64,000 nt of DNA. Origin: an uncultured Verrucomicrobiae bacterium (GTDB lineage: Bacteria > Verrucomicrobiota > Verrucomicrobiia > Limisphaerales > UBA11358). Both the position numbers and the translations under genes were made by a program. Of this stretch, positions 1,194 through 58,302 are shown in pieces (position 1 is the first letter of the stretch; each line of letters opens with the position of its first letter). The DNA lies in the NCBI GenBank assembly GCA_963786375.1, contig CAWAYP010000001.1, forward strand, positions 107,169-171,168. Reading direction: 5' to 3'. The notes under the pieces are model-generated. The model worked only from the letters and a program-made list of their open reading frames with translations, was not told the DNA's origin and made no database searches.

Positions 1194-4073
1194 TCAGCGC
1201 GACTGGGGTTTCCCGTGGGAAACTTCGCCAGGACTGCCGTTGAAGTTTTCAGCCTCCTGCAACCTCAACTGCAAAAGCTGGATGTTTTCGCGCAAGCCTT
1301 CGGCCAGTTTCTTTTGCTTGTCCCGCAATTCGGCCTCGTGCGCCGCCTGGCTCTCGCGCAAGTTGCGCAATTCCAGACCCAGCGCCTCCTTGGCTTCGGC
1401 CAGGGTTTTATGTTCCGATTCCAAACGCGCCCGTTCCACCGCCTGTTGTTTCAAGCCGGACTGGGAGCGTTCCAACTCTACGTTGACCTGATTTAACCGC
1501 TCCTGAAGTTCGTTGGCCGCCTGCTGCGACTTTGCCGCCGCCTGCTGCTCGGCCGCGAACTTGTGCTGAAGTTCCTCACGCACCTGGTGCAGCCCGGCCA
1601 TTTCCTTTTCCAACTGGCCGCACCGTGCCTCTTTTTCCTTGAGGACGGTTTCCGTCTGGCTGGCCGCCGCTTTTGCCGCGTTCAGTTGCTCACGCCATTC
1701 CGACTCCAAACGCGTTCGTTCCGCCGCCTGTTGTTTCACGCCGGCTTGGGAGCGCTCCAGTTCCACATTGACCTGATTCAGCCGCTCCTGAAGTTCGTTG
1801 GCCGCCTGCTGCGACTTCGCCGCCGCCTGTTGTTCGGCGGCAAACTTGTTTTGAAGTTCATCCCGCATTTGCCGCAGCCCGCCGAGTTCCTTTTCCAACT
1901 GGCCGCACTGTTTTTCCTTTTCCTTGAGGACGGTTTCCGCCTGACCGGCCGCCGCCTTTGCCGCGTTCAATTGTTCGCGCCATTCCGATTCCAAACGTGC
2001 CCGCTCCGCCAATTGTTTTTCGAGGTTGGCCTTGAGTTCCTGCTGCGCTTTCGCCGCCGCCTGCTGTTCCGCCACGAACTTGTTCTGAAGTTCATCGCGT
2101 GTCTGCTTTAATCCGGCCAATTCCTTGTCCAACTGGCTACAGCGCGCCTCTTTTTCCTTGAGGACGGTTTCCGTCTGGCCCGCCGCCGCTTTCGCCGCGT
2201 TCAGTTGCTCGCGCCATTCCGATTCCAAACGCGCCCGCTCCGCCAATTGTTTTTCGAGGTTGGCCTTGAGTTCCTGCTGCGCTTTCGCCGCCGCCTGCTG
2301 CTCCGCCGCGAACTTGTTCTGAAGTTCATCCCGTGTCTGCTTTGACCCGGCCAATTCCTTTTCCAACTGGCCGCACCGCGCTTCCTTTTCTTTAAGCACG
2401 CCTTCTGTCTGTCCAATCAGCGCCCTCGCCGCGTTCAGTTGTTCGCGCCATTGCGATTCGATGCGTGCTCGTTCCGCGGATTCCTGTTCCAAGCCGGCTT
2501 TGGCGCGTTCCAATGCCGCACTGCCTTGGCGCAGACGTTCGTGAATTTCCGCATTTTGCGTTTCACCACCGCTCCGCTGACCGGTGGGGGTGGATGGCTT
2601 GGACTGAAGTGTTTGGTCGGGAACACTGGCCGGGCGCGGTTCCGGTTCCGGGCGTGTTGTCTTCGGGGGAGAGCCGGCAGTCTTGGCATCTTTGGCGCCA
2701 AGCTCGAAAATCGGCGCCAACCGGTTGGGTGGTTCCGGCGGCTGTGTCCCGGACTTGGCCGGCTGATTCATTCGAGTGGCGGCTGCGGGTTGAAGCACGT
2801 TTGCCGAACCATTGTTTGCGGCGGAAGGGGCTTCGGGTTGGGGGCGAACGCCTGACACCCGCGCCTTGATTAAATTAACGGTCACTTTCAGCGCCAGTTC
2901 CAAGGGGGAAACCGGTTTGGAAACGAAGTCATTGCCACCGCTGAGCACGCTCTGCTTGCGATTGTCGAAATTGCTGAAAGCCGTGACAAAAATGACCGGA
3001 GTCTTCTTGCAGTGCGGCAGACGGCGCATCTTTTCACAGACATCGAAGCCGGTCATGCCGGGCATGTTGACGTCGAGCACGACGAGGTCGAATGAAGTGG
3101 TTTCCAACAGGCTCAGTGCCGCGGCGGGGTCCTTCACGCCCACGGCGTCGAAATTGACCCGCTTCAGGGAAGTCACGTTTACATGATTGCAAACGGTGTC
3201 ATCGTCCACGACCAACACTTTGGCTTGAAACGGCGGCCCGACGGAATAGCCGTCATTGTTTTTCAAAAGCCCATCCAGGCAATCCACTGCTTGGGCGATG
3301 GTTTGCAACACCGACGGCGTTACCGTTGAGGGCTTGTCCATGATCCCGGAGAGCAACGCGTCCAGCGTATTTGTCAGCATGGCGACGCGGGCACAGTCGG
3401 CCTGAGTGGCGCTGGTGTTCAGCAAATGCACGCGCTGATGAAGCCCGGACAGATGAGCCCGACTGGCTTCCGAATCGGGCGCTTTGATGTACCCCATGCT
3501 GTGCTCGCGAATTTTGGGGATCATTGCCGCAGCTTCTTTCAAAAATGCCGCGCGTTGTTTTGTGGCCGCGGTTTCAGATTCAGGCATCACGACCGTCTGC
3601 GCGCCATTGTGCTGGCTTGCCCCATTGCCAGCCACTGGCGGCGTTGAAGGCGTTTTACCCGCTTCCACCACCACAAACTCCGGCGCGTGAGCGAGCGTCT
3701 CTTGAATGCTTGCCAGCAGCATGGGAAAGGTGCAGTCGCTTTTAAGCAGACGCTTGGTGCCTTGGGCCAGTGGGCTGTCCGGCGGCACTTCTGTCAATGG
3801 AGCGTTGGAAAAAATAATGACGGGAACCGTGGTCAGACGTGGATCGGCTTGCATGAATTTGAGCACATCGGCACCGCTGACCTTGGGCAACATCAGGTCC
3901 AGCAGGACCAAGTCCGGAGTGCGTTCGGAAAGAATATCAAGGGCCACCCGCCCGTCTTGCGCGCATTCCAGATGAAACCCTTCGCGCTCCAGACGCTTTT
4001 GGTACATGGTCTGTGAAACCGGATCGTTCTCGACATAGAGGATTGTCTTAACGCTTATACTTGTGCTTGTCAT
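1194..4073 (-). CDS. response regulator with two receiver domains, an Hpt-like middle region, a Pro-rich linker and a long C-terminal coiled coil (FrzS-like architecture)
   Basis: REC1: ILYVENDP...DLVLLDLMLPKVSGADVLKF...PVIIFSN. REC2: VLVVDDD...DLVVLDVNMPGMTGFDVCEKMR...PVIFVTAF. Between them lies a helical segment with VHLLNTSA where Hpt domains have HxxKGSA (tentative). The C-terminal ~430 aa are heptad-like Q/E/A/K/L-rich tandem repeats. Confidence 0.85.
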   Translation of the reverse strand: MTSTSISVKTILYVENDPVSQTMYQKRLEREGFHLECAQDGRVALDILSERTPDLVLLDLMLPKVSGADVLKFMQADPRLTTVPVIIFSNAPLTEVPPDSPLAQGTKRLLKSDCTFPMLLASIQETLAHAPEFVVVEAGKTPSTPPVAGNGASQHNGAQTVVMPESETAATKQRAAFLKEAAAMIPKIREHSMGYIKAPDSEASRAHLSGLHQRVHLLNTSATQADCARVAMLTNTLDALLSGIMDKPSTVTPSVLQTIAQAVDCLDGLLKNNDGYSVGPPFQAKVLVVDDDTVCNHVNVTSLKRVNFDAVGVKDPAAALSLLETTSFDLVVLDVNMPGMTGFDVCEKMRRLPHCKKTPVIFVTAFSNFDNRKQSVLSGGNDFVSKPVSPLELALKVTVNLIKARVSGVRPQPEAPSAANNGSANVLQPAAATRMNQPAKSGTQPPEPPNRLAPIFELGAKDAKTAGSPPKTTRPEPEPRPASVPDQTLQSKPSTPTGQRSGGETQNAEIHERLRQGSAALERAKAGLEQESAERARIESQWREQLNAARALIGQTEGVLKEKEARCGQLEKELAGSKQTRDELQNKFAAEQQAAAKAQQELKANLEKQLAERARLESEWREQLNAAKAAAGQTETVLKEKEARCSQLDKELAGLKQTRDELQNKFVAEQQAAAKAQQELKANLEKQLAERARLESEWREQLNAAKAAAGQAETVLKEKEKQCGQLEKELGGLRQMRDELQNKFAAEQQAAAKSQQAANELQERLNQVNVELERSQAGVKQQAAERTRLESEWREQLNAAKAAASQTETVLKEKEARCGQLEKEMAGLHQVREELQHKFAAEQQAAAKSQQAANELQERLNQVNVELERSQSGLKQQAVERARLESEHKTLAEAKEALGLELRNLRESQAAHEAELRDKQKKLAEGLRENIQLLQLRLQEAENFNGSPGEVSHGKPQSR
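1437..2474 (-). repeat. in-frame tandem coding repeats (2 x 234 bp then 2 x 285 bp) that build the coiled coil
   Basis: Protein units begin ER(A/T)R(L/I)ES(E/Q)WREQLNAA... and are repeated four times plus a partial fifth. Unit boundaries were computed from the translation as 2241-2474, 2007-2240, 1722-2006 and 1437-1721. Confidence 0.9.
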
Positions 4074-4833: not shown

Positions 4834-5934
4834 TCAAACGACTTTTGTTTCGCCCCGGCCTTTGACGACTTCGCCAATCAGCCACGCCCGGTGTTTCTGC
4901 ACGCGGATGAAATTCAAAACCGCGTCCGCCTTGTCTGCCGATACGATGGAAACCATTCCGATGCCCATGTTGAAGACCTGGTAAAGCTCCGCGTCCAGCA
5001 CGCCGCCCTTGGCTTTGATGAGTTCGAAAATCGGTAGCATGTCCCATGACCCCTTGCGGATGACCACGTCGCAATTCTTTGGCAGCACGCGCGGAATGTT
5101 GTCCACAAACCCGCCGCCGGTGATGTGGGCGAAGGCTTTGACAACATTCTGGGAGGGTCGGCGTGTCGCCGACCGTGATTTTGGGGACGGCGGCACGCCG
5201 TCCCTCCCGTTGAATTGTTTCAACAGCTTCTGCACCAGCGGGCCGTAGCTGACGTGGGCTTTCAGCAATTCCGCGCCAATCGTGCCTTTCAATCCCGGCA
5301 CGCGGCTGGTTGGTTTCAATTTCAGTTGCTCGAAGAAAATTTTCCGGGCGAGCGAATAACCGTTCGTGTGCAGGCCGCTCGAGGCAATGCCGATGACCGC
5401 GTCGCCATGCTTCACGGTCTTCTGGCCGTTGAGCATTTTGGATTTTTCGACGACGCCGACAATCGTGCCGCTCACGTCGTATTCGCCCTTCTGGTAAAAG
5501 CCCGGCATCTGGGCCGTTTCACCGCCGATGAGCGCGCAATGATTTTCCGCGCACGCGCGGGCGAAACCCTTGATGATGTCGGTGAAAACATGCGGCTCCA
5601 GTTTGCCCGTGCCGAGGTAGTCGAGGAAGAACAGCGGCTCGGCCCCCAGCACGGCGATATCGTTGACGCAATGATTCACGAGGTCGGCGCCAATGGTATC
5701 GTGCCGGTCCATCGCGAAGGCGATTTTGAGCTTGGTGCCGACGCCGTCCACGGACGAGACGAGCACCGGCTCGCGATATTTTTTCAGATCGAGCGCGAAC
5801 AGGCCGCCGAAGCCACCGACCTTGCCGAGCACCTCGCGGCGATGCGTGGACGCAAGCAAATGCGGCAGCGTGGCCTTGACCTTGTTGCCCAAATCAATAT
5901 CCACACCCGCGCGGGCGTAAGCCTTCTGTTTCAT
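4834..5934 (-). CDS. purM: phosphoribosylformylglycinamidine cyclo-ligase (AIR synthetase)
   Basis: YARAGVDIDLGN..., GGFGGLF, DGVGTK, AHITGGGFVDNIPRVLP and FNMGIGM are PurM hallmarks. Carries a 20-aa in-frame insert (see repeat 5151-5208). Confidence 0.95.
   Translation of the reverse strand: MKQKAYARAGVDIDLGNKVKATLPHLLASTHRREVLGKVGGFGGLFALDLKKYREPVLVSSVDGVGTKLKIAFAMDRHDTIGADLVNHCVNDIAVLGAEPLFFLDYLGTGKLEPHVFTDIIKGFARACAENHCALIGGETAQMPGFYQKGEYDVSGTIVGVVEKSKMLNGQKTVKHGDAVIGIASSGLHTNGYSLARKIFFEQLKLKPTSRVPGLKGTIGAELLKAHVSYGPLVQKLLKQFNGRDGVPPSPKSRSATRRPSQNVVKAFAHITGGGFVDNIPRVLPKNCDVVIRKGSWDMLPIFELIKAKGGVLDAELYQVFNMGIGMVSIVSADKADAVLNFIRVQKHRAWLIGEVVKGRGETKVV
5151..5208. repeat. composite palindromic element, family A, lying inside purM
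   Basis: GGGAGGG-TCGGCGtgtCGCCGA-CCGTGATTTTGGG-GACGGCGgcaCGCCGTC-CCTCCC. The outer 7-bp inverted repeat encloses two short GC hairpins. purM reads it as GRDGVPPSPKSRSATRRPSQ. Confidence 0.85.
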
Positions 5935-5984: not shown

Positions 5985-6044
5985 GGGAGGGACGGCGTGC
6001 CGCCGCCCCAATCAAATCAGGGTCGCCGACACGGCAACCCTCCC
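5985..6044. repeat. composite palindromic element, family A, at the 3' end of the ygfZ-like gene
   Basis: GGGAGGGACGGCGTGCCGCCGCCCCAATCAAATCAGGGTCGCCGACACGGCAACCCTCCC. The last residues of ORF 6017..7300 (GGLPCRRP-stop) are encoded by it. Confidence 0.85.
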
Positions 6045-7300
6045 ACAAATGGAATTTCCACAATTTTTGCAGAACCTTCGCCCACCGCCGTTTGCAGAAT
6101 CAGTTCGGTTCCGATTTGCTTGGCTTCGCGGCGGACATAACCCAGCGCAATAGTTGCGTTGAGCACCGGTGATTTTACGGCACTGGTGATGTAGCCCATT
6201 TCCTTGCCGTCGCGGAAGAGCTTGTCGCCACGGCGCGGCAAGGATTTCAAATCATCGGCCAGGCGCAGGCCGCGCAGTTCACGCGTGACGTGGCCGAAGC
6301 TGTGGATGCGGTTGATGACTTCCTGTCCGATGTAACAACCTTTGTTGTAAACCACCGCGCGGTTTTCAATGCCGCATTCGAGCGGCAGATTCGTTTCGTC
6401 CATGTCCACCCCGAAGCAGGGAATGCCCGCCTCGATGCGCGCGGTCTCGAACGCCCGCCAGCCACAAGCCCGCCCGCCTTCGCGCTGCTTCGGCGCGACA
6501 AGCCCGCCGGTTTGTTTTGCCGCGGCAATAAGCTTGTCCGCCACCGCGCCGAGTGAGGAATTGGGGACGAAAAGATCAAAGCCACTCAAAATATTTTCCC
6601 CCTCTCCTCCATGAAATGGAGGAGAGGGCCGGGGCGAGGAGGTGAAATGTTGCCCCTCGCCCTGACCCTCTCCCCGTTTGGCGGGGAGAGGAAATGGACT
6701 TAATCGCGGCTGGTTCATCAAATAAATTTCGCCAAGCGTGGCATCGGAAATTTTCACCGAATCGAGCGGTTTCGTTGGAATTTCAGGGAACAATCCAATC
6801 GCGCGCACAACCTCTTCCGCCTTCGGCCCCTGCACGCTCAACAAACCGTAATGCGGCGCGGCGTCCACGATTTGCACGTCGTCGGCAACAACGAACTTTT
6901 CCAGTCGCTGCCAGATCTTCTCCGTCAAACCGGGCTCAAAATCGAGAAGCAATTCATCCGGCAAATTAAAAATGTTCAGGTCGCTTTCCATTTTGCCCCT
7001 GGCGGTGACGAGCGCCGCATAGCAGCCTTCCCCGGCACGCAGTTTTTTTACATCATTCGTCACCTGGCCGTGCAGAAACCGGACGCGGTCGGTGCCGGTC
7101 AGGCAAATCCGGCTGCGAAAACTCAGGTCCAAGACGCCCGAGCTTTGGCACAGCGCGGCGTGTTCGGCCAGCCAATCGCCGTAATCATTCACGATTTCCG
7201 CGCCGTTCACTTCCACAAATCGCGCGCCCAGCCTTTGGTGAAATTCGTGCAGCATCATTGACATGATTCCATTGTAGCGGCGGTCTGCGACTGTCGCCAT
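6017..7300 (-). CDS. folate-binding YgfZ / aminomethyltransferase (GcvT)-like protein
   Basis: GcvT-fold motifs: LDLSFRSRICLTGTDRVRFLHGQVTND, GCYAALVTARGKM, and the YgfZ-type KGCYIGQE. The start could be an internal Met near 7264. Contains a ~37-aa in-frame repeat insert. Confidence 0.8.
   Translation of the reverse strand: MATVADRRYNGIMSMMLHEFHQRLGARFVEVNGAEIVNDYGDWLAEHAALCQSSGVLDLSFRSRICLTGTDRVRFLHGQVTNDVKKLRAGEGCYAALVTARGKMESDLNIFNLPDELLLDFEPGLTEKIWQRLEKFVVADDVQIVDAAPHYGLLSVQGPKAEEVVRAIGLFPEIPTKPLDSVKISDATLGEIYLMNQPRLSPFPLPAKRGEGQGEGQHFTSSPRPSPPFHGGEGENILSGFDLFVPNSSLGAVADKLIAAAKQTGGLVAPKQREGGRACGWRAFETARIEAGIPCFGVDMDETNLPLECGIENRAVVYNKGCYIGQEVINRIHSFGHVTRELRGLRLADDLKSLPRRGDKLFRDGKEMGYITSAVKSPVLNATIALGYVRREAKQIGTELILQTAVGEGSAKIVEIPFVGGLPCRRP
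6597..6692. repeat. multi-hairpin palindromic element, family B, inside the ygfZ-like gene
   Basis: CCCTCTCCTCCATgaaATGGAGGAGAGGG ... GGGGCGAGG...CCCCTCGCCC ... CCTCTCCCCGtttgGCGGGGAGAGG. Translated in-frame as LSPFPLPAKRGEGQGEGQHFTSSPRPSPPFHGGEGE. Confidence 0.8.
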
Positions 7301-10780: not shown

Positions 10781-10843
10781 GGGAGGGACGGCGTGTCGCC
10801 GTCCCAAATCAAAAATTGGGGCCGCCGACAGGGCAGCCCTCCC
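10781..10843. repeat. composite palindromic element, family A, intergenic between ftsK and the PAP2 gene
   Basis: GGGAGGGACGGCGTGTCGCCGTCCCAAATCAAAAATTGGGGCCGCCGACAGGGCAGCCCTCCC. Confidence 0.85.
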
Positions 10844-21149: not shown

Positions 21150-22325
21150 ATGAGCAAAAACTTCATATTTTCCTCGGAGTCCGTCGGCGAAGGCCATCCG
21201 GACAAGGTTTGCGACACCATTTCCGATTACGTGCTGGACGCCTGTCTGGCGCAGGACCGGCACAGCCGCGTGGCCTGCGAAACCTACGCCAAGAGCAACC
21301 TCGTGGTGGTCGGCGGCGAAATCACGACCAAGGCCAAGCTCGATTTCAGCGCCATTGCCCGCCAGGCCATTCGCGACATCGGCTACACGCACGACGACGA
21401 CGTGTTTCACGCGGACAAGGTGCTCATCATGAACGCCATCACGTCGCAATCGCCGGACATCGCCCAGGGCGTGGACGCGCGCAAGGCGGTCGGCAAGAAG
21501 AAGGCCGAGCAGGGCGCCGGCGACCAGGGATTGATGTTTGGCTACGCGACGACGGAAACGCCCGAACTGATGCCCGCGCCCATCATGTACGCCCACAAGC
21601 TGGGCCGAGCGCTGACCCAAATCCGCAAGAGCGGCAGGGTCGCGTGGCTGCGGCCCGACGCCAAGAGCCAGGTATCCGTCCGCTATGTGAACGATCAGCC
21701 GGTGGCCATCACCAATGTCGTCATCTCCACGCAACACGCGCACGATGTGAAGCACAAGACCATCGAGGAATTTTGCATCGAAGAAGTCATCAAAAAAGTT
21801 TTGCCGAAGCGTTTGCTCACCAAAAAGACGCTGTTCCTCATCAATCCGACCGGCCGGTTCGTCGTCGGCGGACCGCAGGGCGACACCGGCCTGACCGGGC
21901 GGAAAATCATCGTGGACAGCTACGGCGGAATGGGCCGTCACGGCGGCGGCGCCTTCAGCGGCAAGGACCCGTCGAAGGTGGATCGCAGCGCGGCCTACAT
22001 GGGCCGTTATGTCGCCAAGAACATCGTGGCGGCGGGCCTGGCGACGAGCGCGGAAATCCAGTTTGCCTACGCCATCGGCTATCCCGATCCGGTCTCGGTT
22101 TGCGTGAACACCTTCGGTACCGGTATGGTGAGCGATGAGGCCATTGAAAAGGCGGTGGCCGAGGTGTTCAGCTTCAAGCCCGCCGATATCATCAAACAAC
22201 TCAACCTGCTCCGGCCGATTTACGCCCGGACCACCAACTACGGTCACTTCGGCAAGAGCGATCCCGCGATCACCTGGGAAAAAACGGACAAGGTCAAAGA
22301 ACTCAGGCGTGCTTTAAAAATATGA
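21150..22325 (+). CDS. metK: S-adenosylmethionine synthase
   Basis: [53 protein letters not shown]: canonical MetK. Confidence 0.97.
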
Positions 22326-22799
22326 GTTTCAAGTTTGAAGATTCAAGTTTCAAGAAAAGCGGATTTCGTCAGCTTGAAACTTCCAACTTGATCGCTTGAA
22401 ATTTTAGTATGGCTTATCACTCGTTTGAAGATTTGGAGGTGTGGAAGCGCGGCTGTCGTTTGGCGGTTGAAGTCAGCCGGACGCTTGCCAAAACCCGCGA
22501 GTATTTTGTTCGCGACCAGATGCAGCGCGCGGCACTTTCCATTCCTTCCAACATTGCGGAAGGCTCGGAACGCGACAGCAAACTTGATTACATTCGCTTT
22601 CTTCGCATTGCCAAGGGTTCGGCGGCAGAGCTTCGAACACAGTGCTACATTGCGGCCAAACTCGAAATCTTAAAGAAGACTGACGCGGATCGTGTTGTCA
22701 CCGAGTGCAAGGAAATCGCCCCTATGTTGCAAGGATTGATTCGCGCCATTGGATGGGTGACAGCTCTCACTTGAAGCTTGAATCTTGAAACTGAAAACT
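22326..22799 (+). mobile_element. four-helix-bundle gene cassette bounded by imperfect inverted TTCAAG/CTTGAA-rich flanks
   Basis: The left flank 22326-22354 is GTTTCAAGTTTGAAGATTCAAGTTTCAAG. The reverse complement of the right flank (22775-22799) reads ...GATTCAAGCTTCAAG, matching the left GATTCAAGTTTCAAG at 14 of 15 positions. It fills the whole metK-ahcY spacer. Mobility is an inference. Confidence 0.45.
22409..22774 (+). CDS. four helix bundle protein (23S rRNA intervening-sequence protein family)
   Basis: FEDLEVWKRGCRLAVEV ... IPSNIAEGSERDSKLDYIRFLRIAKGSAAELRTQCYIA is the family signature; ~120 aa. Confidence 0.85.
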   Translation: MAYHSFEDLEVWKRGCRLAVEVSRTLAKTREYFVRDQMQRAALSIPSNIAEGSERDSKLDYIRFLRIAKGSAAELRTQCYIAAKLEILKKTDADRVVTECKEIAPMLQGLIRAIGWVTALT

Positions 22800-24272: not shown

Positions 24273-24475
24273 AATTTGGAGGGCACTTCTTCGTCAGTGC
24301 CCTGAAGTTTGGGCAGCGATGAAACTGCCCTCCAATCATACAAGCTGCCGTTTAGCAGACCGCTCACTTGGCCGGTGGCCGTCTCGCCTTGCGCCAAGGC
24401 GGCGGTCGCCGTTCCCAGCGTGACCAGGAGACTCAAAAACAGTTTTGTGGGAATCACTTTCAACGTTATTTTCAT
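24269..24475 (-). CDS. small hypothetical secreted protein
   Basis: [29 protein letters not shown] looks like a signal peptide, but the C-terminal third is encoded by the palindromic repeat. Weak call. Confidence 0.3.
24276..24335. repeat. composite palindromic element (family A-like variant) directly after the ahcY stop
   Basis: TTGGAGGGCAC-ttcttcgtca-GTGCCC-tgaagttt-GGGCAGcgatgaaaCTGCCCTCCAA. Same plan as family A: an outer GGAGGG/CCCTCC repeat enclosing two inner hairpins. Confidence 0.7.
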
Positions 24476-26680: not shown

Positions 26681-26739
26681 TGGGGGGTGCGGCTTCGTCA
26701 GTACCCTGAAATTGAGCGGCGGCGCAGCATTGCCCTCCC
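26681..26739. repeat. composite palindromic element (family A-like variant) after the aldo/keto reductase stop
   Basis: TGGGGGGTGCggcttcgtcaGTACCC...GCAGCATTGCCCTCCC shares the cttcgtcagt core with the copy at 24276-24335. Confidence 0.65.
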
Positions 26740-33465: not shown

Positions 33466-33543
33466 TTTCAAATTAGGACACTACCCCCAAAACCAATCCC
33501 GTACGCGGCTTGACGGCACCGCGGATTCGTCCTAGCTTTCAAC

Positions 33544-35782
<2,239 letters not shown>

Positions 35783-38895: not shown

Positions 38896-38958
38896 TTGGG
38901 GTGCCGCAGCGGCGCTGCCCTACCGCAATTTTGGTAGGGCAGAGTTGCCGCTCCGCCC
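38896..38958. repeat. GC-rich palindromic element (variant)
   Basis: GGGGTGCCGCAGCGGCGCTGCCCTACCgcaattttGGTAGGGCAGAGTTGCCGCTCCGCCC, with a central CTGCCCTACC/GGTAGGGCAG hairpin. Confidence 0.6.
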
Positions 38959-41926: not shown

Positions 41927-43840
41927 ATGTCCACCATCCTCACCGCCACTGAAATCACCGTAAGCTACGGCGACCGCAAGGTGCTCGATGCCGCGACGCT
42001 CGCGATTGAGGAGGGCGACCGCATCGGACTGGTCGGACGCAACGGCTGCGGCAAGACGACGTTCCTCCGCATCCTCGCCGGGCTGCAATCGCCGGATAGC
42101 GGCGACGTTACCCGGCGGCGCGAACTGGTGGTCAGTTACCTGCCGCAGGATTTCATGCTCGATGCGGCGAAGAACGTGCTCGAAAACATCCGCGACGGGG
42201 CGAAGCCGGTGCTGGATTTGATCGCGGAGTTTGAATCGCTGCCGCACGACTCGAAGCGCCACGGGGAACTGGAACATCGCATCGCCGCACTGGAAGGCTG
42301 GACGCTGGACCGGCGCATCGAGACCGCGATGTCGCACCTGAATTGTCCCGCCGGCGACCGGCGCATGGAGACGCTTTCCGGCGGTGAGAAGCGGCGCGTG
42401 GCGATGTGCCGCGCCCTGGTCTCGGACCCCGACCTGCTGATTCTCGACGAACCGACGAACCATCTGGACCCGGAATCCATCGAGTGGGTGGCGGAATTTC
42501 TCGACGGGTTTCATGGTTCGTTCCTGGTCGTCACGCACGACCGCTATTTCCTCGACCGCGTGGCCAAGCGCATGGTGGAGTTGTCCGACGGCCGGTTTTT
42601 TTCGCACGCCGGCAATTACACCGATTACCTGCTGGACAAGGCCGAGCGCCAGGCGGCGGACGCCACCATCGAGCACAAACGCCAGATGTTCCTGAAAAAG
42701 GAACTGGCCTGGGTGCGGCAGGGGCCGCGCGCGCAACGCAGCAAACAGAAGGACCGGTTCGAGCGTTACTACGAAACCGCGGCGCAGGACGGGCCGGTGA
42801 TCGAGGAGGACGTGGAGCTGTGCATCCCGCCGCCGCCGCAACTGGGCAATCGCGTCGTTGAGTTGAGCAATCTCGGCATGGACCTGGGCGGGCGCACGCT
42901 GTTTCGCGGGTTCAATTTCACGTTCGAGAACGGCCAGCGCATCGGCGTTGCCGGGCGAAACGGCCTCGGCAAAACCACGTTGCTCAAAATCATCATCGGC
43001 CAGGTCGCGCCCACGGAGGGCACCGTGAAGACCGGCCAGCTCACCAGGTTTAATTACGTGGACCAGGGCCGGATTCAATTGCGCGAGGAACGCACCGCGC
43101 TGGAGGAGGTCAGCGACGGCACGGAATTTGTCATCTTCGGCGACAGCAAGATTTCGCTGCGCGCCTATCTCAAGCGGTTTCTGTTCGCCGACGACCGCAT
43201 CACGACCCAGGTGAAATACCTGAGCGGCGGCGAGCGCAGCCGGCTGTTGCTGGCGCGCATCCTGAAAAACGGCGGCAACTTCCTCATCCTCGACGAACCG
43301 ACGAATGATCTGGATCTGCCAACCTTGCGGGTGCTGGAGGAGGCGTTGATCGCGTTTCCGGGCACCGTGCTGGTGGTGAGCCACGACCGTTATTTCCTGA
43401 ACCGCGTCTGCACCGACATGCTGGCGTTCGAGGGGGACGGCAAAATCCATCACAGCGTCGGCGATTACGATTATTACCTGGAGAAAAAACAGCGTGCGAC
43501 CGTAGCGGCGACCCGGCAGAGCGCCGCCATCATTTCCACCAACAAGTCAGCGGCGCTCCGCCGAGTCGCCGCTACGCCAATATCCACGAAGCCCCGCAAA
43601 CTGTCATTCAAGGAAGCGCGCGAGCTGGAAGGCATGGAGGCGCAAATCCACGCCGTGGACGCGGAAATCGCGCGCATCGAGGGCCTGTTCGTGCTGCCGG
43701 ATTTTCACCGCACCCACGCGACCCAAACCAGCCAGCTTACCGCGACGCTCGCCGCCGCGAAGGAAAACCTCTCACGGCTTTACGCCCGATGGGAGGAGCT
43801 GGAGGCAATTCGCGTGGCTTCGGCGGTCCAGTCGAGTTGA
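41927..43840 (+). CDS. ABC-F family ATPase (Uup-like)
   Basis: Two ABC cassettes (GRNGCGKTT / LSGGEKRR and GRNGLGKTT / LSGGERSR), no TM domain, and a C-terminal coiled-coil tail. Confidence 0.92.
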   Translation: MSTILTATEITVSYGDRKVLDAATLAIEEGDRIGLVGRNGCGKTTFLRILAGLQSPDSGDVTRRRELVVSYLPQDFMLDAAKNVLENIRDGAKPVLDLIAEFESLPHDSKRHGELEHRIAALEGWTLDRRIETAMSHLNCPAGDRRMETLSGGEKRRVAMCRALVSDPDLLILDEPTNHLDPESIEWVAEFLDGFHGSFLVVTHDRYFLDRVAKRMVELSDGRFFSHAGNYTDYLLDKAERQAADATIEHKRQMFLKKELAWVRQGPRAQRSKQKDRFERYYETAAQDGPVIEEDVELCIPPPPQLGNRVVELSNLGMDLGGRTLFRGFNFTFENGQRIGVAGRNGLGKTTLLKIIIGQVAPTEGTVKTGQLTRFNYVDQGRIQLREERTALEEVSDGTEFVIFGDSKISLRAYLKRFLFADDRITTQVKYLSGGERSRLLLARILKNGGNFLILDEPTNDLDLPTLRVLEEALIAFPGTVLVVSHDRYFLNRVCTDMLAFEGDGKIHHSVGDYDYYLEKKQRATVAATRQSAAIISTNKSAALRRVAATPISTKPRKLSFKEARELEGMEAQIHAVDAEIARIEGLFVLPDFHRTHATQTSQLTATLAAAKENLSRLYARWEELEAIRVASAVQSS

Positions 43841-54678: not shown

Positions 54679-55740
54679 ATGATTATGAAAATTGCAGAAC
54701 AAAATTTTGGCGTGTTGCCGGTAACAAATCAGTCGGCAACGTTGGATGCTGAGTCCACAGTCCACAGTGAGCCAGTGTCGGACGGGCCGTTGCTCGACGC
54801 GTATTCCAACGCCGTCGTCAATGCGGCGGAGACGGTCAGCCCGTCGGTGGTGAAGATTGATGTGCGTAAAGGGGGGGCACGAGGCACGAGGCCCGAGGCT
54901 GGTGGCAGCGGGTCGGGTTTCATCATCACACCGGACGGTTTCGCCCTCACCAACAGCCACGTTGTCCACGGCGCGGACCGGATTGAAGTCACGCTGGCCG
55001 ATGGCCGGCATCCCGACGCGCAGGTCATCGGGTCGGACCCGGACACGGACCTGGCGGTCATCCGCATTTACGCGCCGGACCTCAAGCCGGTGCGCCTCGG
55101 CGATTCGAACCGGTTGCGCGTGGGCCAGCTCGCCGTCGCCATCGGCAATCCATACGGGTTTCAATACACCGTGACGGCGGGCGTGGTGAGCGCGCTGGGC
55201 CGTTCGTTCCGGTCCAGTTCGGGCCGGCTCATGGACAATATCATTCAGACCGACGCCGCGTTAAATCCGGGCAATTCCGGCGGGCCGCTGGTCAATTCGC
55301 GCGGCGAAGTCATCGGCGTCAACACGGCGGTGATTCTGCCGGCGCAGGGGCTTTGCTTTGCCATCGCCATCAACACGGCCAAATACATCGCCGGCTGGTT
55401 GATCAAGGACGGCGTCATCCGGCGCAGTTATATCGGCGTGGGCGGGCAGACGGCGAAAATCCATCGGCGGCTGGTGCGGTATCACAATCTGCCGTCGGAA
55501 ACCGGCATGCTGGTGATCAGCGTCGAGCCGGGCAGCCCGGCGAGCCAGGCCAGCCTGCGCGAGGGTGATATGATTGTGGAATACGGCGGACAAGCCGTCA
55601 CCGGCATTGACGAACTGCACAAATTGCTGACCGGAGAACAGGTCGGGGTGCGTTCGCCGATTGTGGTGTTGCGGGGCACGGAGAAGTTGCGCCTGGAAAT
55701 CGTGCCGCAGGAATCCGGCGCGCGGTTGATGCTGAATTAA
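54679..55740 (+). CDS. HtrA/DegP-like S1C serine protease with a PDZ domain
   Basis: GSGFIITPDGFALTNSHVV (His), DTDLAVI (Asp), NPGNSGGPLV (Ser), and a C-terminal PDZ (GDMIVEYGGQAV). Start at ATG 54679 following GGGAG. Confidence 0.88.
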   Translation: MIMKIAEQNFGVLPVTNQSATLDAESTVHSEPVSDGPLLDAYSNAVVNAAETVSPSVVKIDVRKGGARGTRPEAGGSGSGFIITPDGFALTNSHVVHGADRIEVTLADGRHPDAQVIGSDPDTDLAVIRIYAPDLKPVRLGDSNRLRVGQLAVAIGNPYGFQYTVTAGVVSALGRSFRSSSGRLMDNIIQTDAALNPGNSGGPLVNSRGEVIGVNTAVILPAQGLCFAIAINTAKYIAGWLIKDGVIRRSYIGVGGQTAKIHRRLVRYHNLPSETGMLVISVEPGSPASQASLREGDMIVEYGGQAVTGIDELHKLLTGEQVGVRSPIVVLRGTEKLRLEIVPQESGARLMLN

Positions 55741-56910: not shown

Positions 56911-58302
56911 ATGAACGCCGCCGACCGCGCCAAACTCATCCGCGATTCACTCCCGCCGGGTGGTTTGTTTGCCAATCAAGACTGGCATACTTCGCCGGCG
57001 CCATTTCCGCTCGGTGAAAATCTGGCGAAGGAAATCGAATCACTGGGCCGCGTGTTGCTGCAATTCTATCGCGCGGTCAATCTGCTTTACCGGCGCAGCG
57101 TGGAAGGAAAACAGCCGGCGTGGATTGCGGATTTGCTGGACCACGGCAAGCCCGCGGAATTGATTGAGTTTCAGCGTTCGCCCGCGTTCAAGAATGACGT
57201 GCCGCGCGTCATCCGGCCCGACATTTTACTGACGGAAAACGGACTTGGCATCACCGAACTCGACTCCGTGCCCGGCGGCATCGGCTTGACGGCGTGGCTT
57301 GGGCGGACGTATTCCAACCTTGGGAGGGACGGCAGGTTACCGTCCCAAACTTTGGAAACGTCAACGGATAAATCAGGGACGGCGACACGCCGTCCCTCCC
57401 AGGAGATCATCGGCGGCGCGGATGGAATGATTCATGGTTTTGAAAGCATCTTTGGTGACGCGAAACAAATCCACATCGTCGTTTCCGAGGAAGCCGCGAC
57501 TTACCGGCCGGAAATGGAATGGCTGGCCGGACAATTTGAAGATTCAAGATTCAAGATTCAAGATTCAAAATTTGAAAGCTTCGCCGATGGTGATGCGGTT
57601 TACCGGTTCTTTGAACTGTTTGATCTGGCGAACGTCCCGAATGCAAAAAAAATCTTTGAACTGGCCGCTGGAAAAAAAATCCGGCTGACACCGCCGCCCA
57701 AGCCGGTTTTTGAGGAGAAGCTGTTGTTCGCGCTTTTGTGGAACCGGAATTTGCGCGAGTTCTGGCGGCAGGAACTGGGTGAGGGATTTTTATCGCGTCT
57801 GCAAAAATTGATTCCCTACACGTGGGCGGTGGATCCGGCGCCGCTGCCGCCGCACGCGGCGATTCCCGGACTGAATCTTACCGACTGGCGGCAACTTAAG
57901 GGCTTGTCCCAAAAGGAGCGCGAACTGATTTTGAAGGTGTCCGGTTTTTCCGAGCACGCGTGGGGCGCGCGCGGCGTCCATCTCGGCAGCGATTTGGCGC
58001 AGGCGGACTGGAGCGCGGCAGTGGACCGGGCCATTGCAGGCTTTTCGACTTCGCCGTTTGTGTTGCAACGTTACGAAAAACCGAAACTGGCCGAGGCGCA
58101 GTGGTTTGATTTTGACAAGAACGTCCTCGTGCCGATGAAAGGCCGGGTTCGGTTGTGCCCGTACTATTTTGTGGCCGGCGAAGGCGACGCGGCGCGTCCG
58201 CAACTGGGCGGTGTGCTGGCAACCATTGTTCCCGCCGATAAAAAAATTGTTCACGGCATGAGTGACGCAATTCTCGCGCCGTGCGCCATTGAGCCGGGGT
58301 GA
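56911..58302 (+). CDS. ATP-grasp-like amidoligase (circularly permuted ATP-grasp / glutathionylspermidine-synthase-like)
   Basis: Overall layout and segments such as RPDILLTENGLGITELDSVPGG, ILKVSGFSEHAWGARGVHLG and VLQRY suggest this superfamily. Not verified. Carries two in-frame repeat inserts. Confidence 0.6.
   Translation: MNAADRAKLIRDSLPPGGLFANQDWHTSPAPFPLGENLAKEIESLGRVLLQFYRAVNLLYRRSVEGKQPAWIADLLDHGKPAELIEFQRSPAFKNDVPRVIRPDILLTENGLGITELDSVPGGIGLTAWLGRTYSNLGRDGRLPSQTLETSTDKSGTATRRPSQEIIGGADGMIHGFESIFGDAKQIHIVVSEEAATYRPEMEWLAGQFEDSRFKIQDSKFESFADGDAVYRFFELFDLANVPNAKKIFELAAGKKIRLTPPPKPVFEEKLLFALLWNRNLREFWRQELGEGFLSRLQKLIPYTWAVDPAPLPPHAAIPGLNLTDWRQLKGLSQKERELILKVSGFSEHAWGARGVHLGSDLAQADWSAAVDRAIAGFSTSPFVLQRYEKPKLAEAQWFDFDKNVLVPMKGRVRLCPYYFVAGEGDAARPQLGGVLATIVPADKKIVHGMSDAILAPCAIEPG
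57322..57400. repeat. composite palindromic element, family A, inside the ATP-grasp gene
   Basis: GGGAGGGACGGCAGGTTACCGTCCC...CAGGGACGGCGACACGCCGTCCCTCCC. Read in-frame as GRDGRLPSQTLETSTDKSGTATRRPSQ. Confidence 0.85.
57541..57568 (+). repeat. (GATTCAA)x4 microsatellite inside the ATP-grasp gene
   Basis: gattcaa x4 within TTTGAAGATTCAAGATTCAAGATTCAAGATTCAAAATTTGAAAGCTTC. Translated as FEDSRFKIQDSKFESF. Confidence 0.85.

Follow-up and report, generated by a model that had tools for sequence, protein, structure and literature searches.

A 58-bp palindromic element lies in frame within the purM gene in a 64,000-nt stretch of DNA (the window) from an uncultured Verrucomicrobiae bacterium (contig CAWAYP010000001.1), and we propose, with a probability of roughly 0.85, that it is a doublet of repetitive extragenic palindromic (REP) units that was probably moved by a REP-associated tyrosine transposase (RAYT) and is tolerated by the enzyme as a disordered loop. 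According to this proposal, the element would be a doublet like a REPIN (REP doublet forming a hairpin), in which two 25-nt, GGGAGGG-headed hairpin units stand inverted around a short AT-rich spacer, and the family to which it belongs (here called family A) would be dispersed in a clade of soil and peat Verrucomicrobiota and moved in trans, as single-stranded hairpin DNA, by an HUH/Y1 RAYT. The purM copy, placed where a helix meets the AHITGGG strand in the C-terminal domain, would add ~22 residues rich in Gly, Arg, Pro, and Ser, probably as a disordered surface loop that leaves the fold intact, and would be a tolerated passenger and not an adaptation; it would have persisted because it keeps the frame, contains no stop codon, and lies at a permissive, locally AT-rich spot. 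In relatives, the same loop would have been refilled many times by other REP families or by heptamer arrays. The gene and the element are as follows.

4834..5934, minus strand: purM (phosphoribosylformylglycinamidine cyclo-ligase), 366 aa, identified by TIGR00878, Pfam, alignment to a PDB structure, and an AlphaFold model.
5151..5208, no strand assigned: family-A REP doublet ("GGGAGGG" head) in purM, identified by sequence, unit scan, and folding.

The element consists of two GC-rich hairpin units in inverted orientation and reads GGGAGGG TCGGCG tgt CGCCGA CCGTGATTTTGGG GACGGCG gca CGCCGTC CCTCCC, with unit 1 at 5151-5175, the AT-rich spacer at 5176-5183, and the inverted unit 2 at 5184-5208. 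Translated from the minus strand, it gives GRDGVPPSPKSRSATRRPSQ (in the context ...LLKQFN GRDGVPPSPKSRSATRRPSQ NVVKAFAHITGGG) and encodes 20 of the 22 surplus residues of this PurM, just ahead of the strand with the AHITGGG motif. A first-pass annotation, made from the sequence alone, had described a palindromic element lying in frame and free of stop codons inside purM, and both the sequence and the open reading frame (ORF) bear this description out. Folded as single-stranded DNA, the two strands of the doublet gave -25.7 and -28.6 kcal/mol (z = -5.9 and -6.6). The pattern GGGAGGG-N35-60-CCCTCCC matched three times in the window and never in 100 shuffles, and a scan of the window with the 25-nt unit found eight units, forming four doublets (at 5151, 5985, 10781, and 57322), compared with zero or one single unit in base-shuffled windows. 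Rfam, searched over the window at the gathering threshold, returned only two tRNAs and a thiamine pyrophosphate (TPP) riboswitch, with no family at 5151-5208.

The host protein aligned to TIGR00878 at 367 bits in two stretches with a break at residue 239, and Pfam recognized its AIRS and AIRS_C domains. In an alignment to Geobacillus kaustophilus PurM (PDB 2Z01), residues 4-241 corresponded to chain residues 5-241 and residues 264-362 to chain residues 242-340. Because these two matches adjoin each other in the chain, the 22 residues at 242-263 are without a counterpart and fall between chain residues 241 and 242, and the element explains the excess of the ORF over canonical PurM, as had been proposed in the first-pass annotation. 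Nearly all of 60 PurM cluster representatives (40-55% identity, 335-366 aa) also lack residues here; PurM outside this clade does not have the 20-aa segment, and close relatives do not carry the same peptide. We modeled the protein with AlphaFold from a diverse alignment, in place of a shallow alignment of 45 close homologues that gave a pLDDT (predicted local distance difference test) score of 39; these 45 sequences are invariant across much of the protein outside the loop. The resulting model had a mean pLDDT of 94.4 and a predicted template modeling score (pTM) of 0.92, and its pLDDT fell to 63-68 only over residues 241-260, which are modeled as coil between a helix (231-242) and a strand (265-270). 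The insert, for which a surface loop had been expected, therefore maps to a low-confidence coil in the model, at a position that is probably compatible with the PurM fold and is predicted to be a surface loop.

The closest relatives carry unrelated peptides at the insert position. This was seen in the 120 closest PurMs, which come from metagenome-assembled genomes (MAGs) labeled Verrucomicrobiae, Verrucomicrobiota, or Limisphaerales and are 84-93% identical outside the loop. The observation bears on whether the 20-aa segment could be a lineage-specific functional loop of PurM, under selection at the protein level and palindromic only incidentally. Loop length is conserved within the classes of occupant, and two more distant relatives (P0124 and P0147) have ~10 additional residues at the same position, as such a loop might lead one to expect. 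However, the peptides are unrelated among relatives that are 85-93% identical over the rest of PurM, the segment is modeled with low confidence and without secondary structure, and the same DNA is found in unrelated genes and between genes, so that the dispersed copies already contradict this explanation, which we consider extremely unlikely.

The element recurs well outside the window, with many copies in frame in other housekeeping genes. A search with GGGAGGGACGGCGNNNCGCCGTCCC over GTDB genomes (one genome per species) returned at least 118 stretches, nearly all of them in Verrucomicrobiota MAGs (from peat, palsa, and Danish soils) and often on several contigs of a genome. From the sampled loci and the window we assembled a set of 82 doublets (56-128 bp), each with two inverted 25-nt units around a spacer; a family-A unit has a GGGAGGG head and folds into a hairpin whose 9-bp stem closes a 3-nt loop. 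Covariation was computed on the 58 distinct units that the search pattern left free to vary: 94.1% of cells were paired, and 61 cells had changed on both sides, compared with 22.4±2.9 after shuffling (none of 500 shuffles reached 61). The structure score was 0.362, as opposed to at most 0.13 in controls in which the 3' partners were slid by 1-3 columns. Local hairpins are kept more fully (95%) than is pairing between the two units of a doublet (74%), and 33 of the 82 doublets are heterodimers. Exact family-A units were also seen on contigs binned as Methylomirabilota, Sulfotelmatobacter, Deltaproteobacteria, Rokuibacteriota, Limnocylindrales, and Sulfopaludibacter (L016, L020, L031, L032, L070, L073, and L078); these are more likely to be mis-binned verrucomicrobial contigs than cases of horizontal spread.

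Conserved stems might also mean that the purM hairpins are kept for a nucleic acid role (in mRNA stability, in translational pausing at the boundary of the two PurM domains, or as a site for gyrase or integration host factor), with the peptide as a by-product. The stems covary while the encoded residues change, twelve units have, at pair 9-21, a T·G wobble that can pair on just one of the strands, and REPs are reported to act as RNA elements in other bacteria (PMC3733652). However, the covariation is family-wide, includes intergenic copies, and is expected from recognition by a transposase, and many relatives have nonpalindromic heptamer arrays or loops of 5-8 aa at the purM site, so that a hairpin is not required there. 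A role of this kind is improbable.

The ends of the copies carry no target site duplication: a direct repeat of at least 3 nt was found at the ends of 1 of 80 family-A copies, compared with 1.7 expected. Copies lie in AT-rich DNA (A+T content of 65% in the flanks and 79% in the spacers, against a background of 43%), and the flanks of the 80 copies revealed no target motif beyond this AT richness (AAATT-like words). The 25-nt terminal inverted repeats and the small size would also suit a classical MITE (miniature transposable element with inverted repeats) derived from a DDE-type insertion sequence, but the lack of a target site duplication, the fact that each arm is itself a conserved hairpin, and the nature of the gene that the repeats bracket, a Y1/HUH RAYT and not a DDE transposase, make such an origin hardly credible. 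This gene, which encodes an orthologous protein of ~160 aa with family-A units within tens of nucleotides on either side, was found in three loci.

L013, 4577-5131, strand not stated: RAYT gene bracketed by family-A units, identified by repeat adjacency and NF047646.
L094, 5427-5939, strand not stated: RAYT gene, identified in the same way.
L115, 2652-3128, strand not stated: RAYT gene, identified in the same way.

The bracketed protein matched the NCBIfam model for REP-associated tyrosine transposases (NF047646) with an E value of 2e-24 and 86 bits (cutoff, 80), and its top match in the PDB was Escherichia coli TnpA-REP (4ER8; E = 1.4e-6), with the HUH and Tyr motifs aligned. Taken together, the hairpin doublets, the absence of a target site duplication, and the RAYT bracketed by the repeat units indicate an element of the REP/REPIN type and not a Rickettsia palindromic element (RPE). 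The first-pass annotation had drawn an analogy to RPEs, which holds for the in-frame behavior of the element; the element itself is a REP doublet with an associated RAYT and falls outside the RPE families. Two other ORFs were seen near purM in relatives, a Y1-like ORF of weak similarity ~130 nt downstream of purM (L006, 11235-11948) and a 118-aa RAYT-like gene 4.3 kb from purM (L008, 15408-15764).

The purM copy is one of many that lie within genes. In the set of 82 doublets, 33 were in stop-free frames reaching at least 60 codons on either side (compared with 65% of random intervals), and 19, representing 14 distinct sites and about a quarter of the sample, were in recognizable genes. Pfam, applied to one representative locus each, identified the hosts as aconitase, UvrA, a chorismate-binding enzyme, FolC, a HemN-like radical-SAM protein, CstA, UvrC, and 5-enolpyruvylshikimate-3-phosphate (EPSP) synthase (aroA), and the domain match runs across the insert in aconitase, UvrC, and EPSP synthase; orthologous repeats of the same sites (aconitase in a second locus and FolC in two more) were left out of this confirmation. 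Four further hosts (a DNA methyltransferase, an ABC-F ATPase, a thioredoxin-like protein, and an aminotransferase) are known from reading the translations alone, and the two hosts of in-frame family-A copies in the window, purM and an ORF at 56911..58302, were confirmed by homology searches. All three reading frames of the element occur, with the hydrophilic GRDG... frame used at 10 of the 14 sites (p ~0.004 by our own binomial estimate, on our own classification of the sites). The 64-kb window holds at least nine in-frame inserts derived from repeats.

We also looked at what occupies the purM loop in relatives. Eight purM loci retrieved by exact protein look-up contained seven palindromic doublets (six further families and a second family-A copy) and one heptamer array. 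Close relatives hold other palindromes, heptamer arrays, or short loops at this site and do not share the peptide. Families B, C, D, and H and the right unit of family E recur elsewhere in the sampled genomes (with shuffled controls giving ~0), and families C, D, E, and G carry GTAG heads. In the 1.1 Mb sampled, with up to 3 mismatches allowed, no other occurrence was seen of family F or of the left unit of family E, which are therefore only putative dispersed repeats. After the addition of 80 metagenome loci, 86 purM loci could be classified by the state of the loop.

27 of 86 loci: REP doublet (at least 8 families).
27 of 86 loci: 7-nt units in tandem, with at least 12 different unit sequences.
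21 of 86 loci: other loops, 10-13 aa, many resembling decayed arrays.
11 of 86 loci: short loop, 5-8 aa.
L008 and L133-L204: loci among which the heptamer arrays at the purM site were seen.

The heptamer arrays are 36 nt long, or 15 nt in two short forms, and so differ by frame-keeping steps of three units; in one allele (L154), what remains of family A is a single unit. The borders of the replaced segment are constant, with TT[CT]AA[CT] as the left border and [GA]T[CT]A[AG][AG]GC as the right one. Occupants differ even between close neighbors: over the 763 nt upstream of the loop, identity is 95.3% between L128, which holds family A, and L169, which holds heptamers, and upstream identity is 94.7% between L146 (family G) and L171 (heptamers). 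In both pairs, nucleotide identity is ~95% upstream of the loop and 88-91% downstream, a drop at the repeat that suggests recombination breakpoints or chimeras of assembly. The closest sampled allele to the window purM (L130, 9.8% apart) holds family D, and alleles with the same family are on average 13-18% apart. Distance bins around the site, compared to look for recombination tracts common to same-family alleles, gave a ratio of same-family to random-pair distances of only 0.87-1.0. Neighbor joining (NJ) with Fitch mapping on the purM DNA gave 36 changes, compared with 35.6 with shuffled labels, and so had no power to count events; a protein NJ tree of the 120 PurMs was starlike, with the occupant classes only partly clustered. 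Nevertheless, the number of occupant changes at this loop must be large. Candidate routes may include recurrent insertion into a permissive AT-rich loop, targeted exchange, recombination limited to the cassette, and chimeras of strains.

These observations raise the possibility that the purM loop is a site of targeted integration or exchange, at which placement is site directed and frame preserving and does not reflect random insertion filtered by selection. A RAYT may cleave at a resident hairpin or an AT-rich target, with precise excision and reinsertion, or recombination may be confined to the cassette. The numbers of REP doublets, heptamer arrays, and short forms among the 86 loci, the constant borders, the different occupants in the nearest neighbors L128/L169 and L146/L171, the fact that same-family alleles are barely closer than random pairs, and the fall in identity across the loop (from 95% to 88%) would all fit such a site, as would the shared sites with differing occupants in a gcvT-like gene, in thiC, and in the ORF at 56911. 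On the other hand, the flanks of the 80 family-A copies share AT richness and no motif, a permissive loop together with a very high REP load could yield repeated hits without targeting, the NJ/Fitch mapping did not have resolving power, and assembly of the metagenome contigs could have joined different strains at the repeat. We regard targeting as possible but doubtful. Only as a tentative suggestion would we extend it to the wider notion that the loop of PurM, along with comparable loops of other conserved proteins in these bacteria, is a dedicated hypervariable cassette site, with a precise, frame-preserving exchange of REPs of many families and heptamers that is linked to RAYT and REP activity or achieved by cassette-confined recombination and that would be fast enough for alleles ~95% identical upstream to differ in occupant.

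Several points weigh against our proposal of a RAYT-moved REP doublet tolerated as a passenger. Passive carriage alone does not explain why purM alleles that are ~95% identical upstream have different occupants. The family-A head, G-GGAG-GG, is one base off the canonical GTAG. The protein of L115, at 75 bits, is slightly below the NCBIfam cutoff of 80, and tblastn detected no RAYT gene in the 64-kb window; mobilization of family A by the RAYT, though most likely, is inferred only from the adjacency of genes in other genomes. Translation of the insert and the activity of the enzyme that contains it are predictions from the sequence.

The window contains three other family-A doublets and repeats of several further families.

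5985..6044, no strand assigned: family-A doublet that precedes the purM start codon by 50 nt, identified by sequence and unit scan.
10781..10843, no strand assigned: family-A doublet between two minus-strand ORFs, with a degenerate right unit, identified by sequence and unit scan.
57322..57400, no strand assigned: family-A doublet, 79 bp, with a long spacer, in frame in the plus-strand ORF at 56911..58302, identified by unit scan and homology.
6581-6700, minus strand: in-frame palindromic insert of another family in the ORF at 6017-7300, read as SPFPLPAKRGEGQGEGQ...SPRPSPPFHGGEGE.
33744-33788, 34257-34301, and 34369-34413, strand not stated: three in-frame GTAG-type REP units in thiC (33710-35782), identified by sequence.
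43501-43576: in-frame GTAG-type doublet in the ABC-F ORF at 41927-43840, CGTAGCGGCGACCCGGCAGAGCGCCGC ... inverted, read as ATVAATRQSAAIISTNKSAALRRVAATP.
24276-24335 and 26681-26739: a related pair of REP-like doublets that belong to other families and have GGAGGG heads, different stems, and loops of 8 nt, identified by direct reading.
38896-38958, strand not stated: GTAG-type head-to-head doublet, identified by direct reading.
57539-57572, 22325-22354, 22770-22789, 33675-33696, 34120-34140, 54752-54768, and 54876-54899: heptanucleotide tandem arrays, from the Tandem Repeats Finder (TRF) list.

The first-pass annotation had grouped six other repeats with the purM element; those at 5985, 10781, and 57322 do belong to family A, but the looser variants at 24276, 26681, and 38896 were rejected because direct reading of the sequence revealed other stems and heads. 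The doublets at 24276-24335 and 26681-26739 begin within ~20 nt after stop codons. The right half of the doublet at 5985-6044 provides the final codons (...GGLPCRRP) and the stop codon of a GcvT/YgfZ-family ORF (6017..7300, minus strand), whose relatives in L007 and L009 have a C terminus that is 7 residues shorter. L009 has the palindromic insert of that ORF as well, and in L007 an unrelated palindromic peptide takes its place; this gcvT-like gene also carries an insert of 17 aa at a different site in L007 and one of 10 aa in the window. The copy at 57322-57400 is read as GRDGRLPSQTLETSTDKSGTATRRPSQ, in the same reading frame of the element as in purM. Its host is a conserved hypothetical ORF that matches no Pfam or NCBIfam family model, and its homologues, at 76-85% identity, number in the thousands. 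Of the 120 closest ones listed, most have the family-A doublet at the same place, and the others have family C ("VGQASRLS...RRDACPT"), one of two further repeat-like inserts, or a single unit. A second site of this ORF holds heptamer arrays with many different units in relatives. The thiC gene follows the TPP riboswitch (33537-33661) and encodes a protein of 690 aa, compared with 640 aa in L005, where the units are lacking or replaced. The doublet at 43501-43576 belongs to family G, which fills the purM loop in L146, L147, and L153. Period 7 is the most common class of tandem repeat in the window (10 of 39 TRF rows), and some of the heptamer arrays are in frame, as at 57539 (DSRFKIQDSKF) and, in thiC, at 34120. 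In a separate observation, a response regulator ORF (1194-4073, 959 aa) contains tandem repeats of 285 and 234 nt at 1413-2477 that encode a coiled-coil-like segment.

In textbooks, REPs are "extragenic" elements, and palindromes that lie in frame tend to be regarded as a curiosity of Rickettsia. Here, a REP family with a recognizable RAYT lies inside the frames of core enzymes (PurM, aconitase, UvrA, UvrC, FolC, AroA, and ThiC) of abundant free-living soil and peat Verrucomicrobiota. Such inserts inflate protein lengths, can mislead alignments, trees, and structure prediction, and amount to a natural experiment on which loops of conserved enzymes tolerate ~20 disordered residues. The purM loop, with at least 8 REP families, a dozen heptamer units, and near-identical alleles, offers a tractable locus for the study of how REPs choose, leave, and reenter a site, and if the tentative cassette site reading were true, REP systems would be a general source of protein loop diversity in free-living bacteria. 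Both the scale of the phenomenon in free-living bacteria and the hypervariable purM site merit follow-up.

REPs, REPINs, and RAYTs are well described (PMC3116915, PMC3337134, and PMC3479197), and the natural system for comparison is REP/REPIN-RAYT in E. coli, Pseudomonas, and Stenotrophomonas (Nunvar 2010; Bertels & Rainey 2011; Ton-Hoang 2012; Messing 2012). Family A resembles it in its short GC-rich hairpin units, arranged mostly as inverted doublets around a spacer, in the absence of a target site duplication, in its subfamilies with alternative complementary stems and its heterodimers, and in the single Y1/HUH transposase gene bracketed by repeats (in L013, L094, and L115). Its copy number per genome may also be high, with 8 units in the 64-kb window and at least 118 stretches across species-representative genomes. 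It differs in its head, GGAG(GG) in place of GTAG, and in its host, Verrucomicrobiota. It also differs in location, since REPs are by definition mostly extragenic, whereas about a quarter of the sampled family-A copies are intragenic and in frame.

Like the RPEs of Rickettsia, which are palindromes inserted in frame, at presumably fold-compatible positions, in unrelated housekeeping genes (Ogata et al. 2000, 2002; reviewed in PMC10969869), family A is found in frame and stop free in unrelated housekeeping genes. However, RPE-1 is ~150 bp (RPE families, ~100-150 bp), and RPEs are confined to Rickettsia, obligate intracellular bacteria with reduced genomes, and have no known transposase, whereas the element described here is 58 bp and belongs to free-living soil Verrucomicrobiota. 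Its separation from RPE-1 to RPE-10 is by description, that is, by length, host, and the null Rfam result. The heptamer arrays recall the STRR heptanucleotide repeats of cyanobacteria that Mazel et al. are said to have reported in 1990, reportedly short tandem 7-nt arrays common in the genome. Arrays of 7-nt units are likewise common here (period 7 leads in the window), but those described here are in frame in conserved genes, vary in length by 3 units at a time, and alternate with REP doublets in occupying one site.

A precedent within this phylum is found in the survey of GTAG- and CGTC-tagged REPs by Di Nocera, De Gregorio & Rocco (2013; PMC3733652), which also classes RPE-4 and RPE-6 as CGTC-type REPs. 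It describes REP singles and dimers that lie inside known genes of Opitutus terrae and encode 20-30 aa, several REP families per genome, and a single instance, in Xanthomonas recB, of different REPs in nearly the same position. The first-pass annotation knew of no such elements in this lineage; intragenic REPs had in fact already been reported for O. terrae, of the same phylum. The O. terrae elements are similar to ours in phylum, in their position within genes, in DNA repair hosts such as uvrA, and in the presence of several REP families. They differ in order (the relatives here are labeled Limisphaerales or Verrucomicrobiia) and in REP family, purM is missing from the ~70 O. terrae rows of the survey's table, and density looks higher here (at least 9 in-frame repeat-derived inserts per 64 kb). 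Many-family turnover at one codon position is not described in that survey, and in the literature that we searched we found no description of it or of alternation with in-frame heptamer arrays. Thus, the basic phenomenon was known from O. terrae, and what is added here is a GGAG-headed REP family in another verrucomicrobial order.

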